Of a stretch of DNA of 64,000 bases, positions 1 through 6,000 are shown in pieces. Positions within the stretch are counted from its first letter, which is position 1; the number at the start of each line of letters is the position of its first letter. The position numbers are program-made. The DNA comes from Bdellovibrionales bacterium RIFOXYD12_FULL_39_22. Lineage in GTDB: Bacteria; Bdellovibrionota; Bacteriovoracia; Bacteriovoracales; Bacteriovoracaceae. The stretch spans positions 1 through 64,000 of the forward strand of contig MEQL01000049.1 of NCBI GenBank assembly GCA_001770205.1, written 5' to 3'.

Positions 1-3000
1 ATTGTAACATAAAGTATGCCTCCTTATTTGATAACTATTTTTCAAGGATGGCAGATAAATCAGACTAAATCACTGACTGCTGTGAAAGCCTTACATTAAG
101 CACCGGTTGGCAATTGAACCAGCTCCTTGTTCTGCAATATATTGGCACAAATCGAGACCATATATGGAATAATACCCAGAGTTTACTATTTGATCGCATT
201 CATTTGCGGTACTAGAGAAGCTCGTCCTTCCCACTTCGTCGCAGACATTTTGAGGAGTGAGGGAGTATGCAAACGAAAGATTACTAAATACAGTACTTGC
301 TAATAAAAGGACTAAAACTTGTTTCATAATAACCTCACTCACTTTCCTAATATTAAAAATCTGGGCCATGCTCGTTATTTCTCAATCTTTGCGATCCTGC
401 TCCGAAAAGCTCATCTTTCTGCGCAAGATCTATTATCCGCCAACATTCCCGAGCACAGTCTGCTTATAACTAGATTAAGAAGTTTAGCTCCGTTTAATTT
501 TTTTGTTCTAAGTTTGGATCAATAATACACATTGAAGTTGCTTCAGCTAGTTCCGTTAATCTTTTTGAAAGTTCTTTTGCATGAATTGGCATTCTCTGTC
601 TGTACAAGTAAGCAATCTCATCAACTCGTTGAACATCCCGCGCTCCAGTAGCGTCTGCGGCTATAAATTGAGCATCTGCTGATAATGCATATAAAATTCC
701 TTCTAATTGAGACTTATAACGACTACATGTTTTAACTCTCGCGATCTGCTCTTTTCGGTCCTGTATCTGTTGATCTCCCATTTCTTTGAGATCTTGTACT
801 AAAGTGTCCGCAAAAGTTGAAACTGCAAAAAAAGTTAATAAGCCGGCAATCATTTTTCTCATAATTTTCTCCTTGTTCATTAATCAAATATTAAAAATCT
901 GGGCCATGCCCGTTATTTCTAAAGCAGGCGAAACCTCCATCTGGACACGCATTATTATATAAGCTCAGTGTAGTGCAAAGTTGAGTGCAATAATATAGTA
1001 ACTATTAGTAGCTGTAATTTTTTACCATCCTGTCAATTTTTTTTACATTTAATAAAACTAAGAAGGCGCAAGGACGAAACCATAACGGGATTGAGCATGG
1101 ATATGGCTCCAACTCGGATCTAATTTGTTCGGAGATCTACTCCAAGGACGCAGAATTGTTCTCAAGATTTATTTTTGAAGACGGATAGCAAAGTTTGCAT
1201 TTTTCTAGATTGCCTACCTTCTTATTAACTTTTTTGGGGAGGTATTTAATGGAGTCAATTCACAATGCAGTCGCTGGTGTAGATGTTCACCAATAAAAAC
1301 TAACCATCACAACATTAGTTGGAAAAGATTCCGGCAAAATCACCAAAACAACGTGGGGAGTGCGCCACTTACACCGATGATTTAGTTGCTGCTGGCAAAA
1401 AAATTAAATCACTCGGTGTTACTGAAGTTGCGATGGAGAGCTCCGGTGTCTACTGGAAACCTGTTTTCAATGTCTGGTCCAAGATGGGGATTAACATCAC
1501 CCTGGGTAATGCCTATCACATCAAAAATGTTCCTGGCAGGAAAACTGACATTAAAGACAGTGAATGGCTTGCTCAACTCCATCGCAATGGACTCATCAGG
1601 CCCTTTATATCCCGGCAGAAGAGTTTAGGAAATTACGAGATCTGACTCGCCATCGAGGGAATCTTGAAAAGGACATTATTGATGTTAAAAACAGGATTCA
1701 AAGGACCTTGGAGGATGGGAATATTAAACTGAAGTCAGCTATCTCAAACGTCTTTGGTGTCGCTGGTAGAAAAGTTTTAAAGGCCATCATAGAGGGGGAA
1801 AAAGATCCTGATGTTTTGGCCGGCCTTGTTGACACTAATGTAAAAGCGAAAAAGGAGGTGATTAAAAAATCGCTAAATCATACTATAGATGAGACAAATT
1901 TATTTCTTCTGAACAATATGTACAGTCAATTACTATACCTTGAACATCTTGCACAAGAGTTGGGAAAAAAAATGACGATATGATGACACCCTATAACGAG
2001 TTTATTAAAAAGTTAGATAAAATACCCGGAATCGATAAAATTACAGCACAAATCATTATTGCTGAGGGCACAACGGATATGAAAAAATTTAAAGACGCAA
2101 AGTCATTTGCGGCCTGGGCGGGAGTGGCATCTGGGAACCATGAATCTGCTGGTAAAAAAAAGAGGGCCAAAGCACGCAAAGGTAATCCAGCGTTAAAGAA
2201 GGCACTTGTTATTGCTGCCAATGGTGCAGTAAAAAAGAAAAACACATTCTACAATGCCAAGTATTTCCGACTAACTATGAAAACGGGACCAGCAAACAAG
2301 GCAAAAGTCGCTATTGCAAACAGAATGGCCATGGCGATCTACTGTATATTATCCAAAAATAACGTACGATATCATGAGATGGGTACTGCAAGGGTGGTGG
2401 ATGAGGGGAAAAAAATTAAAAATCTTATCAATCAGCTAAAATCTTTAGGGGTTGAAGTAAACCATTGTACAAAAGAAAAAATTGAAGCTGTGGTAAAAGT
2501 CTCGGCATAAGTTGGTTTAAAAATTTTATAATAATTCAGTCTTTGATTTAAAGACCAGGGGAGGATTTTGCTCTTTGAAAAAGTTCGCTTATATAGCAAT
2601 AGTAAAAATCTGGGCCGCGCCCGTTATGTCTCAACTTTTTTGGTCTTGCTCAGAAAAGCTTATCTTTCTGCGCAAGAACTATTATCCGCCAATGTTACCA
2701 AGCACAAGTCACTTACAATCTTAGTTAATGGCATCTAATACTTTGTTTACGGATTCTTCAATTGAATTATATGTGTTATCAATTTTTTTTGATTTCATTT
2801 CATCATACAAGTTTGAATTAATAATACTATCTAGAAAAATTTCATCTTCTATACCACGCTGACGAAGCCTTTTTTTCAACTCTTCTTCCAAGCATGTTAT
2901 AGTTACTATTACTAATTTATAATCAATATCCTTAAGTTTGCTGAGAAATCTTTTAAAAACTACTTCTTTGTCAATTACCCAACTAAAAATAACATTTTGA

Positions 3001-6000
3001 TAAAAAGTATTATTCAGATAGTTTCGAAGAAGGAATAGAGTATTACTTTCAATCATATTAATATTTTCATCAGTAAAGCATATAGGATTCATCATCCAGC
3101 ACCAGTCAGCATCAAGCCAGATGCTTTTGTCCATTTTTTTATAAAGGACTTTGCATATCGATGATTTTCCTACGGCCATATTGCCATTTATTATAATCAG
3201 TTTTTTCATTTTAATTATGTAGCCTTTGTGAAGCAGATAGAGATTTTCTCTAAACCTAATATTAAAAATCTAGGTCATGCCCATTATTTCTCAACTATCG
3301 TGATCTTGCTCAGAAAAGCCCGCCTTTCCGCGCCAGATTCATTATCTGCCAACGCTCCCATTCACAGTTCACTCATTAATCTAGTATTTGCTGATTCTCG
3401 AAATTTCAACATAATGATCTCCAGAAAGAGTTGTTTGAACTAATCCATTTGAAGAAATATCTAAAATTTCTGTTTTCATTTGATCAAACGCATAATTTTG
3501 AATAACAGTTTCTCCAATTTTAAAAGTTACTCTATTAAAAAACCTAAACTCGCTATAGCTATCAACGCTCTTGTATTTTTTTATTCTCGAAATTTCAACA
3601 TAATGATCTCCAGAAAGAGTTGTTTGAACTAATCCACTTGAAGAAATATCTAAAATTTCTGTTTTCATTTGATCAAACGCATAATTTTGAATAACAGTTT
3701 CTCCAATTTTGAAATCTGCGCCCAATGTCAGATAACTTGTTACAATCAGCAATAATATAAAAAGCTGCTTTCTCATAAATGATCCCCTTATTTCAACCAA
3801 ATAATTAATATTCAAAACACACTCATAAATCGTCTACGTTAGTGAGTGTAGCATGAGGGCAGAGGCCAAATGTTGGAAAAAAAAATTTATGTCCACAATT
3901 ACATACTCTGTACAAGAATTGTGCAGGCATAACATCTTGGAATCTTACCAACCCAGCAGATCATAACTTATTAATCTGAACACTCGGCTATCACGAATGG
4001 CCTGTGTATCAACTGACTGCAACACTCGACGCCTTGGGCCTTATAATGGCCTCGCGGCGATCAATTCATAGAACTTTTTTCTATCCTTATTCCTTGTATT
4101 TTGGCACTTACGAAGACATTATTCAGACATTCGCATCATGGAGAATTTTAGACCTGACCACCCTTTTGAAAAAAGTTGACTACAATTATTCACACCAGGC
4201 ATTTGCAAAAAGATTGAAGAAGCTAGAGGATTCTGGTTACCTTTCATCTGTCTATTTTTAAAACTATCGCAAGTATCTATCGCAAGTATCTTTTTTTGAC
4301 AGAGAAAGGATTGTCAAAGGCCGGACTAACTAAAGCGTGGGCGGGGAACAAGAAGATTATTCAAAAACATTTGCTAATCTTAAAGATGCGATAACGTGGC
4401 AGGCCAATTTTCACCCTTCACTTCCTGATGTAGTTGTAAAAAATATCTGCAACCGTGGCCTGCTTGAGCAGCTGGCCATTAATTTCATGGTATAGATTCC
4501 TGCGAAAACATGTTTTTTTAATAGCTTTAATTTTTTTTACTCATGGAATGTAGATAAAACAAGGAAAATTATCGTATAGGTAGATTTTTCAACCATTAAG
4601 ATAATTAAGCCCCATCAGCAGCGCCTCTAATTTTTGAATTATTAGTTTCTCCTCTTCCTCACTACTTGTTCTAGAGAGGACGATCATACTTCGCGCCAAT
4701 TTTTCCTTGCGTATAGAATCACTCAAAATATTTTTTATTAGTTGCACATGATCTTCGTTGGTAAAATTTTTAATTCGAAGGCCCATTAACGCAACTACCG
4801 CCGAACTAGATTCGTGGTCGAATTTTTCTAAAATATCAATATGATTATCTAATAAACATTCGTAGGCGTCAGGATCTATTTTTTCGTAGTTGGAAATGAT
4901 ATAGTTTATATCTTGAGCATCTCTTTGCCGGGAGGGATTTTCGTTCCAGGAGACAATTTTTAAGGCCACCAGCATTTCCGGAGTAACTACTTTTACTTCG
5001 CTTTTTCCAAACCTTATAACTTTCGAACTATTCAAGGCTTGTTGATAACCAGTTACGGTTACAATCGAGTCATAAAAGGGCGGCCATGATACCTGGCCAT
5101 TTTACTCGACGCCCCCAAAGGGCAAAAGATCAAAAGGAGTACCATTATAGTAATATCTCGACTTGTTTTTTTCGCTGTTACCCGGCCTGATCTTGGAGTC
5201 TTGTCAAAATAAGTCGCGCAGTAATTCTAATGTATCCCAAGAGTCAATCAAAAGCGCAAAATCTACATCAGAGGTTTTTCTAGGAGAGAGCGCGCTAATC
5301 CTGCTTCTTGGGAGATTATATCTCGTGCCATTGCCCCTACGATGAAAAAATCAATGTTTAGATATTTAAAGTGTTTGCCAAGTCCTTCGACAATATTTTC
5401 AAAATCAGTATTCATATTTGGCAAGTGTGGTTTTAATTTGCTTTTTTAGAATTTCGGCAGTTTCAAGATTTCTATCAATTCCCGAATTAAGTAGTTCACA
5501 ATAGGTAATAAAATCAGGAATGGTGCCATCGTTGTTATTTAATTCAGTCGGCCAAAAACATTTGGAGATTTTTATCTGGCCTTTAGGATCTTTTTTTAAG
5601 CGAAGTATTTTTAATAAAGAAGAGATATTATCCTCATATGTATAAATATTAAAAAATTCTGGCGTCAGGTAATCCGTGCGGATTGCGGCGGCCGCTTCAC
5701 CCCCCCAGTATGAATCTGTGGTAATGGATTTTTTTTTCCATGATCCAAAAAAGCTATTATCAAGAGGAGAAAATTTCCCCAAGAGGTTATTCTTTTTTGT
5801 CTCAAAATCTAAAAGAGAAATTCGACATCTTGCGGCCAGATCTTCAAAACGGCCAAAATAGCGCTGTCTGTTTTTGGAAATAATTAATTTATAACTATAA
5901 AAATTTTTCAACGCTTTATTAACAGCCCCCAATGACAGATCAAGCTTTTCTGCCAGATCTCTCTGGGTAAAGGTCAACGCCTCTGGGCGACAGGCCAAAT

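Follow-up and report, generated by a model that had tools for sequence, protein, structure and literature searches.

A candidate RNA joint in tandem arrays of secreted-protein genes of Bacteriovoracaceae

What holds together a row of mutually unrelated small genes? The question is raised by the start of contig MEQL01000049.1 of Bdellovibrionales bacterium RIFOXYD12_FULL_39_22, a member of the Bacteriovoracaceae. In the window, as we call the whole 64,000-nt stretch that was analysed, positions 91–4019 hold an array of open reading frames (ORFs) on one strand, separated by copies of a non-coding repeat, element B. An initial annotation likened this layout to an integron cassette array without an integrase and regarded B as a lineage-specific 3′ module that ends in a terminator. 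Our preferred reading, to which we give roughly even odds, is that B, the conserved joint in tandem arrays of small secreted-protein genes in many genera of the family, works as RNA and also allows cassettes to be swapped.

Element B and the genes around it

The array and its surroundings comprise the following features.

91–369, minus strand: cassette ORF with a 92-aa longest frame and no Pfam family; the last gene before the contig start, with no B behind it
346–469, minus strand: B copy, variant 1 (nhmmer E = 3e-33; 134 bits with covariance model R1); its AATATT end lies 21 nt upstream of the ATG of the next ORF
494–880, minus strand: cassette ORF of 128 aa with a signal-peptide-like start (MRKMIAGLL...); its stop lies 23 nt upstream of B
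882–923, minus strand: 3′-terminal fragment of B standing alone (model positions 86–127; nhmmer; repeat family D4), directly preceding the ribosome-binding site (RBS) and ATG of ORF 494–880
927–2593, plus strand: IS110-family insertion sequence, its transposase frame broken, inserted where B ends in AATATT
2594–2718, minus strand: B copy, variant 1, whose CTAA forms the stop of ORF 2721–3209
2721–3209, minus strand: cassette ORF for a P-loop kinase-like protein (AAA_18) of 162 aa, without a signal peptide
3253–3377, minus strand: B copy of the 5′ subfamily CTAGATTAATGAGTG, whose CTAG forms the stop of ORF 3381–3815
3381–3815, minus strand: first cassette ORF of the array, a 144-aa frame containing an internal 146-nt tandem duplication (D3)
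3782–4020, minus strand: element D, the array head, with a hairpin, a T-run and AATATTAATTAT at its end
4021–4300, no strand assigned: island backbone remnant with some intergenic sequence and the 5′ part of an island gene of 243 aa, matching the intact island of contig C45
4589–6454, minus strand: accessory context, an AbiEi-like gene and an AbiEii-like fragment (type IV toxin–antitoxin)

ORF 91–369 is likely to start at the Met of MKQVLVLLL..., which would give a signal-peptide-like N terminus, and ORF 3381–3815 at that of MRKQLFILLL.... The kinase-like ORF has a more deeply covered homologue with other flanks in run X7, and the match between the two breaks at 2725 and 3228.

A whole-genome nhmmer search with a profile built on the three full window copies returned 31 matches, in line with the roughly 30 copies of about 130 nt described before; one further iteration gave 41 matches at E ≤ 0.01, of which 31 had E < 1e-6. 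The element is about 127 nt long and is bounded by (A)CTAG on one side and by GGGCATGGCCC, a T-run and AATATTAG on the other. An alignment of 21 full copies runs from (A)CTAG to ...GGGCATGGCCC(A/G)(G/A)ATTTTTAATATT(AG), and conservation is absent beyond these ends. Copies share 70% identity on average and 90% at most. Partial copies begin at model positions 13, 20, 25, 27, 31, 42, 61 or 86 and end at 58, 73, 91 or 112, a scatter that looks like decay rather than a functional pattern. Rfam 15, searched at permissive E-values against positions 1–6000 of the window and seven array loci, yielded only chance matches far below gathering scores.

All four B copies within 91–4019 lie on the minus strand, as do the ORFs, and the arrangement recurs throughout the genome. 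At 21 of the 31 copies, the stop of a same-strand ORF lies between −36 and +38 nt from the projected B start (ORFs of at least 40 aa were counted; 2 of the 21, of 40 and 56 aa, are doubtful), compared with 529 of 3,000 random positions (17.6%; binomial p about 1e-9). In eight copies, the TAG or TAA of the initial CTAR is itself the stop codon of the upstream ORF. The proposed placement of B directly behind stop codons, many of which it supplies, is thus confirmed. On its other side, B lies about 21–24 nt upstream of an ATG in four copies of this genome. Four copies stand at array ends, where they face a gene that converges on them or lies on the other strand (C2, C54:19487, C19 and C22); because these have nothing to lead, they weaken a leader role for B.

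The proteins encoded between the joints have little in common. Most of the 44 ORFs that lie no more than 200 nt from a copy of B lack a relative in the genome, and a single flanking pair looks alike, so the claim that flanked proteins are mutually unrelated stands. Across 65 array proteins, 8 of 2,080 pairs are alike beyond the signal peptide, 3 of these 8 coming from the duplicated loci L147 and L148. To the AAA_18, M23, trypsin-like, LRR and ADP-ribosyltransferase (ART) domains listed in the initial annotation, all of which we recovered, the cargo adds HEAT, NUDIX and Ank. The cargo also differs at an orthologous site: in one genus, two species have a 1.9-kb flank in common, yet different cassettes adjoin it. 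A cassette of 218 aa, with homology that extends from the ATG to about 59 nt past the stop, occurs at different array positions. Cassette mobility is indicated, not proven.

Element D occurs at eight further places in the genome, at the head of an array every time, and homology between its copies stops right after AATATTAATTAT. At least 12 copies exist of another leader repeat, E; this promoter-like module stands between B and the ORF for several downstream genes (C28), which does not fit a single long array transcript. Unrelated ORFs are thus indeed framed by shared modules, with B on the 3′ side and D or E on the 5′ side. What had been missed is that the arrays of this genome are cargo of tRNA-integrating islands and are headed by D; the 3′ end of the tRNA is repeated over 16 nt at the borders of the C45 island. 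By its nearest protein cluster, an island integrase points to the Bdellovibrionota.

Relatives in other genera and a conserved fold

Covariance models of B (R1 and R2), run on 150 further genomes of the family, detected relatives in 19, which belong to 13 additional genera, so the element is not lineage-specific as had been supposed. These relatives are again arrayed, with a period of about 500–600 nt. Position counts were made on 46 copies, with two L148 rows left out because L148 is the same DNA as L147. A same-strand ORF stops 11–110 nt upstream of the R2 model start in 34 of the 46, and an ORF starts between −13 and +25 nt from the 3′ end of B in 36; 33 of these 36 ORFs look like signal-peptide proteins. 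The earlier view of B as the 3′ element of an ORF therefore holds in that B follows stop codons, but B is equally tied to the gene downstream.

The bond to the downstream gene reaches into its coding sequence. DNA conservation past B continues from the ATG to about +59 before falling to background level, and the conserved unit often extends from B into the signal-peptide codons. Downstream ORFs in other genera commonly share a stereotyped signal peptide, joined to unrelated mature parts. 'Head' copies that have no upstream ORF retain the same 3′ two-thirds of the element. A simple scan of the array strand of one four-element array (G151) found no recurrent sigma-70-like site or terminator.

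Both variants of B form a central hairpin. In variant 1, GATCTTGC.CAGAAAG pairs with CTTTTCTG.GCAAGATC, with a G/A mismatch between the two blocks; variant 2 has a contiguous stem of 11–12 bp and lacks the outer 6 pairs. The 15-bp hairpin with two alternative arms that had been described is thus real, but it differs between the variants and its covariation within this genome is weak: the RNAalifold consensus (−1.68 kcal/mol) contains only the central hairpin, and 74.4% of alignment cells can pair compared with 73.1% in shuffles, a negligible excess. The signal emerges across genera. In a cross-genus alignment (A4), pairing reaches 81.4% of cells, with 73.5 ± 1.7 in shuffles (0/500), and covariation scores 0.312, with 0.194 in shuffles (0/500; slid controls ≤ 0.217), while in a second alignment of 49 matches from ten other genomes (A5) both sides change in 14 of 17 pairs and the score is 0.285 against 0.154 (0/500), an excess that is not to be read as a probability because both alignments contain related sequences and A5, being fitted to the covariance model, favours the structure. 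G–U pairs are common (pair 49–56, for example, is G–U in 8 of 12 sequences), and B folds 6–19 kcal/mol more stably on the ORF strand than on the opposite one. On the sense strand, compensatory changes maintain two hairpins of B.

The second of these is a mini-hairpin (GGGC/GCCC) of −4.6 to −7.0 kcal/mol followed 1–3 nt later by a T-run; the central hairpin, at −16 to −21 kcal/mol, has no U-tract. That the GGGC-ATG-GCCC stem and its T-run form a terminator is doubtful. The stem is weak, a simple terminator scan scores it on the opposite strand only, and in one other genus (genome G010) it is replaced by AAAC/GUUU; this replacement makes termination unlikely as its conserved role.

How the joint may work

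We favour, at a probability of about 0.5, the view that B joins cistrons as an intercistronic or leader RNA element and, through its homology, also allows cassettes to be exchanged. The family itself, its placement, the compensatory pairing, the occurrence in many genera, the unrelated cargo and its difference at an orthologous site are observed; transcription through B, its role as RNA and recombination at B are what we infer. The array would be transcribed on the ORF strand from its head module (D here, 'head' variants of B elsewhere), and B would be contained in the transcript. With its first bases, (A)CTAG and a 5′ hairpin, it would close the upstream reading frame. The last ~85 nt would serve as leader of the next gene, comprising a central hairpin of 10–16 bp, a purine-rich stretch, a mini-hairpin of 4–5 bp and an AT-rich tail ending in ATTAG, and would set the RBS and start codon 10–25 nt downstream. 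B may act in cis to determine how stable each cistron is, how it is processed or how well it is translated. It is also a likely substrate for homologous recombination because it is, together with the signal-peptide codons in many genera, the only DNA common to unrelated neighbours and shared between arrays; such exchange could swap, copy or delete cassettes without a dedicated integrase. Against this, recombination between joints can shuffle existing cassettes but does not account for a new, unrelated ORF first gaining its joints.

Other systems combine conserved flanks with variable genes. In the vsp/vlp genes of Borrelia, with their upstream and downstream homology sequences, and in Mycoplasma variable lipoproteins, shared flanks are substrates for gene conversion, and a conserved leader, signal-peptide codons and a downstream element surround variable coding DNA as they do here. 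The mature parts in B arrays are, however, unrelated proteins including enzymes (M23, trypsin-like, ART and NUDIX), and all copies look expressible, with no single expression site evident. The recombinase-associated immunity-gene arrays of gut Bacteroidales (rAID-1), which lie outside classical integrons, are likewise reported to join unrelated small genes by a conserved inter-gene sequence, but no Xer-like recombinase heads the B arrays, whose cargo consists of signal-peptide proteins. Propagated ('mobile') promoter regions lie upstream of non-homologous genes in prokaryotes, as the homologous 5′ modules D, E and the 3′ part of B precede unrelated genes here; unlike them, B carries the preceding stop codon and conserved hairpins, and no canonical promoter is readable in it.

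Integrons are a closer parallel, and B could be an attC-analogous recombination site and D the counterpart of attI, with an unnamed recombinase cutting at ...TTTT(T/G)AATATTA to move an ORF together with its B. Clusters of attC sites without an integrase (CALINs) need none, and the arrays share much with both: a distinct head site followed by short, mostly promoterless and mostly orphan ORFs in one direction, each trailed by a ~130-nt folding repeat that often covers the stop codon and keeps its hairpins by compensatory change, as attC does. Cargo differs at an orthologous site, the same cassette occurs in different arrays, and D and B share an end motif exactly at the limit of homology. Tyrosine recombinase genes also lie 2.5–3.5 kb from D, oriented away from the cassettes (C13, C19 and C45), but these are ordinary tRNA-site island integrases, B is absent from homologous islands in four other genera, and arrays in other genera adjoin varied elements (ISL3, IS66, an integrase fragment or AbiE) with no constant recombinase found beside them. 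A search of the whole genome (94.6% complete) with the integron integrase model TIGR02249 gave 17 matches, the best scoring 52.7 bits where the cut-off is 265. No RYYYAAC or GTTRRRY ends can be read in the 21 aligned copies; the nearest look-alikes, GTTGGCG and AAATAAC, lie inside B in the wrong order and off consensus. An end-to-end bulged stem is absent from the consensus, and folds of single copies pair the ends inconsistently. Partial copies break at many positions. Across genera it is the sequence of B that is conserved, not its fold alone, and B keeps a fixed spacing to the following start codon and is often tied to a shared signal peptide. We consider an integron-like site unlikely, although it deserves some weight. 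From the original cassette interpretation, the modules, the one-directional arrays and the lack of an integron integrase and of attC ends remain, but not the restriction to one lineage or the purely 3′ position, and termination is unlikely as a conserved role.

That B is a selfish, non-autonomous repeat inserted behind genes, perhaps targeting CTAG or TA and kept where its orientation is harmless, is a doubtful explanation. REP/BIME, ERIC/IRU (about 127 bp), pneumococcal BOX and Neisseria Correia elements are small hairpin repeats in transcribed gaps, and near stop codons such repeats affect mRNA stability, termination or promoters. B resembles them in size (about 100–150 nt), hairpins, proximity to stop codons and modular build, with 5′ subfamilies on a common 3′ part. 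It has defined ends, (A)CTAG and ATTAG, each with a TA that would be compatible with target duplication, and its copies cluster in IS-rich accessory DNA, with an IS110-family element at a B end twice. Yet B has neither terminal inverted repeats nor the near-identical copies that recent spread would leave. Two IS200-type Y1 transposase genes and fragments are present, one of the fragments lying about 190 nt away from a copy of B, but the contigs of the two genes hold no B match and their flanks no B motif, whereas REP units flank such a transposase (RAYT) and are mobilised by it. Copies are confined to secreted-protein gene arrays rather than scattered over 3.9 Mb, their orientation is strictly that of the genes, their distance to the start codon is fixed in several genera, and compensatory changes indicate selection on the fold.

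Least probable is that B is a multi-copy small-RNA gene whose promoter would lie within the variable 5′ third, at a conserved GATAAT-like box some 8 nt ahead of the central hairpin, and whose transcript would measure ~75–80 nt: the conserved TGGC.GATAAT block in that third, the strongly conserved 3′ 80 nt, the sharp end after the T-run and the succession of 5′ hairpin, single-stranded purine-rich stretch and short terminator hairpin with U-run, a layout common among small RNAs, would suit it, but the −35 position is poor at 15-nt spacing, the box is GAAAGT in one subfamily, the AAAC/GUUU stem could hardly terminate, and most copies in other genera directly adjoin the next RBS, as a free-standing RNA gene need not.

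Returning to B as a joint, a bolder extension, which we offer tentatively and consider somewhat improbable, is a family-wide cassette system of predatory bacteria that works with no integron integrase, in which a joint of ~130–190 nt and a stereotyped signal peptide form a universal adaptor. If so, any coding sequence placed between two joints would yield an expressed and secreted product, and arrays would be rebuilt at the joints. The joint would be a new cis-acting RNA motif and a recombination handle together, and each strain would gain its own set of secreted proteins.

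Element B and the genes that it adjoins

A profile search of the nhmmer type, built from the three full copies in the window and run on the 3.95-Mb, 62-contig genome, found element B, a folded repeat of ~127 nt between ORFs for small secreted proteins, at 31 places; one iteration returned 31 at E < 1e-6. The repeat family proposed in the initial annotation is real: 21 full-length copies align end to end, from a (A)CTAG start through GGGCATGGCCC and a T-run to an AATATT(AG) end, and their flanks are unrelated on either side. About four subfamilies can be told apart by the 5′ ~45 nt (mean identity 59%), the 3′ ~80 nt is common to all of them (mean 77.5%, maximum 96%), and no two copies exceed 90% identity over their whole length. 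A same-strand ORF stop lies within −36 to +38 nt of B in 21 of the 31 copies (two of these 21 ORFs are doubtful), compared with 529 of 3,000 random positions, which bears out the placement behind same-strand stops. The TAG or TAA of the element's own CTAR start is the stop codon in eight copies. In many copies a small antisense reading frame also runs open across B, yet identity is equal across its codon positions (0.81, 0.82 and 0.80), and it was rejected as non-coding.

The window array runs on the minus strand from 4020 down to 91 in the order D (the array-head element), ORF, B, ORF, B, insertion sequence (IS), B end, ORF, B and ORF.

Features of the window array
3782–4020, minus strand, element D
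3381–3815, minus strand, cassette ORF
3377–3253, minus strand, B copy
2721–3209, minus strand, cassette ORF for a P-loop kinase-like protein without a signal peptide
2718–2594, minus strand, B copy
927–2593, plus strand, IS110-family IS with a broken transposase
923–882, minus strand, last 42 nt of B
494–880, minus strand, cassette ORF
469–346, minus strand, B copy
91–369, minus strand, cassette ORF

Signal-peptide-like N termini are found in three of the four ORFs, the exception being 2721–3209. ORF 3381–3815 carries an internal 146-nt tandem duplication (3380–3525 and 3569–3714, 96% identity), which repeats a protein module of ~48 residues. The IS110-family IS adjoins the AATATT end of B at two places and ...GAAACTT at a third (window 927–2593, plus strand; locus L056, in the order C34–IS–C16; and C36:4005–4128), and its common target looks like TT|AGT. 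Two diverged copies of the last ~35–42 nt of B (882–923 and 2594–2635) frame the window IS, an arrangement other than a simple target duplication. Elsewhere in the window, a 12-nt unit (CAACAGCGACAG) repeated in tandem about 11 times (27154–27290) is enclosed by a 66-nt inverted repeat (25340–25405 and 27329–27394) whose arms are 71% complementary and separated by 1.9 kb.

B copies lie mostly within a few kilobases of contig ends. Several array-bearing ends are spanned by metagenome contigs identical to the genome, which reveal IS copies where the assembly breaks off. A multi-copy IS200-like (Y1 transposase) repeat interrupts the assembly at many contig ends (C57:46981–47223, C59:10650–10982, C51:80600–80983 and several contig ends), one copy lying ~190 nt from a B copy. 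A metagenome scan with exact motifs gave 16 loci, of which all but L050 and L064 match the window's genome with 100% identity over 300 nt or more and can thus help to join contigs but offer no comparison; neither one-genome-per-species contigs nor viral contigs contained the two exact B motifs. L050 and L064 hold further cassettes missing from the assembly. In L050 (4,418 nt; cassette at 726–1847), a full B and a B fragment enclose a secreted ORF of 373 aa, and its C-terminal part has, by eye, an R...S...E-x-E-like pattern, as in ADP-ribosyltransferases.

A conserved element across genera

When a single B copy was compared with 40 relatives by BLAST, only chance matches of 19–25 nt came up, which suggested a lineage-specific element, as had been claimed at the outset. 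Covariance models overturned this. R1, made from the 21 copies of this genome, detected a copy at 126 bits in genome G073, from a different genus, and weak matches in G010 and G074; R2, made from a 12-sequence cross-genus alignment, matched 19 of 150 further family genomes, or 14 of 69 genera including that of the window. Three of the at least four genomes of one genus, g11, have at least 17, 13 and 15 copies, these being lower bounds because only 24 candidates per genome were scored. Arrays of this type are also present in two near-complete genomes, G084 (3 contigs) and G013 (9 contigs).

Many R2 matches lie 450–650 nt apart on one strand. Twenty-two fetched loci contained 49 matches, and 46 entered the context count, after removal of a truncated match and of two rows that were duplicates. 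A same-strand ORF ends 11–110 nt before the R2 start in 34 of the 46, a position that corresponds to where the complete element has its CTAG, and an ORF starts −13 to +25 nt past the R2 end in 36, of which 33 encode signal-peptide-like proteins. Gene maps contain up to nine small genes in a row (87–168 aa in G042), each starting MKKLL(I/V)GL...SSFA or similar.

The array proteins are mostly unrelated past the signal peptide. Among 65 array proteins, 8 of 2,080 pairs are alike beyond residue 24; three of the eight reflect an assembly duplicate and the rest fall mostly between genomes of one genus. DNA conservation anchored on the ATG is 0.89–0.55 across the 59 nt that encode the signal peptide, and at background (about 0.40–0.47) from +60 onward. 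Protease-, ADP-ribosyltransferase-, LRR- and ankyrin-type proteins occur as cargo, and one cargo protein had no usable relative in the protein atlas. Whole intergenic regions, when aligned, follow one plan. CTAG comes first, followed by a 5′ hairpin (in g11, GTCTCTG...CAGAGAC) and the central hairpin; next come purine-rich sequence (AAAGACAAAGAAA or AAAGTTGAGAAA) and the mini-hairpin; the AT-rich tail closes with ATTAG, and 10–25 nt with GGAG separate it from the ATG. Head copies, which have no upstream ORF, differ in the 5′ part and keep the same 3′ two-thirds.

Within this genome alone, pairing is present and covariation is negligible. In the cross-genus alignment A4, 81.4% of cells pair compared with 73.5% in shuffles (0 of 500), and the covariation score is 0.312 compared with 0.194 (0 of 500; slid controls at most 0.217); since related sequences can exceed shuffles without any structure, these figures are support rather than proof. 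The 49 further matches have two-sided changes in 14 of 17 pairs and a score of 0.285 compared with 0.154, in an alignment that was fitted to the model and so favours structure. Three genera have a GGGC/GCCC mini-hairpin, and G010 has AAAC/GUUU instead. Across genera, compensatory change affects both hairpins, which supports the fold without proving it. G-U pairs are common and folds of the ORF strand are more stable, pointing to the sense transcript or, at the DNA level, to the ORF strand. As an intrinsic terminator, neither hairpin looks good, and the four-element array of G151 has no recurrent sigma-70-like promoter or terminator on its array strand. Candidate sigma-54, sigma-28 (a GCSGATAA-like block) and ECF-type promoters in B, read from alignments, were rejected for wrong spacing or a missing −35. 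B has no Rfam family.

Array heads, islands and possible cassette turnover

Element D occurs at eight further places in the genome, always heading an array, and homology among its copies stops at ...TTTTGAATATTAATTAT, just 5′ of the leader of unrelated first genes. D is adjoined by backbone genes of a small integrative island family. On contigs C13 and C45, a tRNA gene is followed by a tyrosine integrase, an HTH_17 excisionase-like gene, two to four small genes, D or a remnant of it, and cargo with B; the small genes of C45 include an ECF-type sigma factor (19715–20194), divergent from the cargo. The C45 island is framed by 16 nt of the tRNA 3′ end, repeated at 16443 and 25816, so that its cargo ORF and B fall inside it. 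This ~9.4-kb island (C45:16459–25831) is intact, with a split integrase, the excisionase-like gene, and Fic/DOC and MazEF-like pairs. The window array is a decayed version without the integrase. Homologues of the island integrase, whose nearest protein cluster is mostly from Bdellovibrionota, occur in 33 of 60 other family genomes; the homologous islands of G071, G015, G070 and G014 have no B-like repeat, despite their att repeats.

A third non-coding repeat, E (~150 nt, at least 12 copies), is of a conserved promoter/leader type. Close to the 5′ end of E is a TAGACA-N16/17-TATAAG-like site, and its 3′ end, CAGTTCTGGGACAATATC, lies directly before the ribosome-binding site of secreted-protein genes (also read as CATCAGTTCTGGGACAATATC, immediately 5′ of the ribosome-binding site and ATG). 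The copies in this genome include C5:9670–9920, C36:4287–4522, C28:2056–2195, C25:5183–5337 and C39:311754–311879. E also stands within arrays, and it has no Rfam match.

Two g11 species have a common 1.9-kb flank (76% identity) that adjoins arrays of unrelated genes. The same two genomes have in common a 218-aa cassette, 78% identical from the ATG to ~59 nt past the stop, which is the second array gene in one and has no detected upstream element in the other. The apparent cassette pair L147/L148 (G089), with differing neighbours, was rejected as the same DNA assembled twice. In the DNA sequencing run X7, ORF 2721–3209 is matched at 90% identity or more by a contig with roughly fivefold the depth of the window's organism; the contig departs from the window at 2725 and 3228, limiting the match to the ORF and 19 nt of its leader. 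Judged by eye, the 30 letters past the stop in this contig may belong to another B subfamily. The match may hint at turnover, and at no more than that because the contigs are short and the flanks are known for 30 letters.

Interpretation of the arrays

We consider B best explained as a transcribed intercistronic or leader joint whose homology also permits cassette exchange, with a probability of roughly one half. This reading fits best because B is tied to both neighbouring genes, folds on the sense strand, has head modules, and is without internal promoters or strong terminators. Under it, B would function in expressing every cistron, and the sequence that B copies have in common could let cassettes be exchanged.

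An integron-like, site-specific system, which the layout of the arrays recalls, is unlikely: the parts differ, as there is neither a recombinase, a core site nor a fixed breakpoint, and the genome contains no integron integrase, in agreement with the initial annotation. That B is a selfish repeat seems more doubtful still, as its copies are old and strictly oriented and show compensatory change, which is hard to square with that reading. The least probable reading is that of a small-RNA gene, given the fixed abutment of B to the next ribosome-binding site. None of these four readings explains how a new, unrelated ORF first gains its joints, or the two B-end copies around the window IS.

Among the papers listed by a full-text literature search there is no description of B or of such arrays, and passages from the paper on the Bacteriovorax marinus SJ genome (PMC3526173) contain none. 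Such arrays break short-read assemblies and stand at contig ends in several genomes. They add a cassette architecture that is integron-like in layout and not in parts, and B offers a concrete conserved RNA or DNA element, found in at least 14 genera, that is open to tests of expression or recombination. If the transcribed, exchangeable joint is true, it would explain how the family's large set of orphan secreted proteins is built and renewed.
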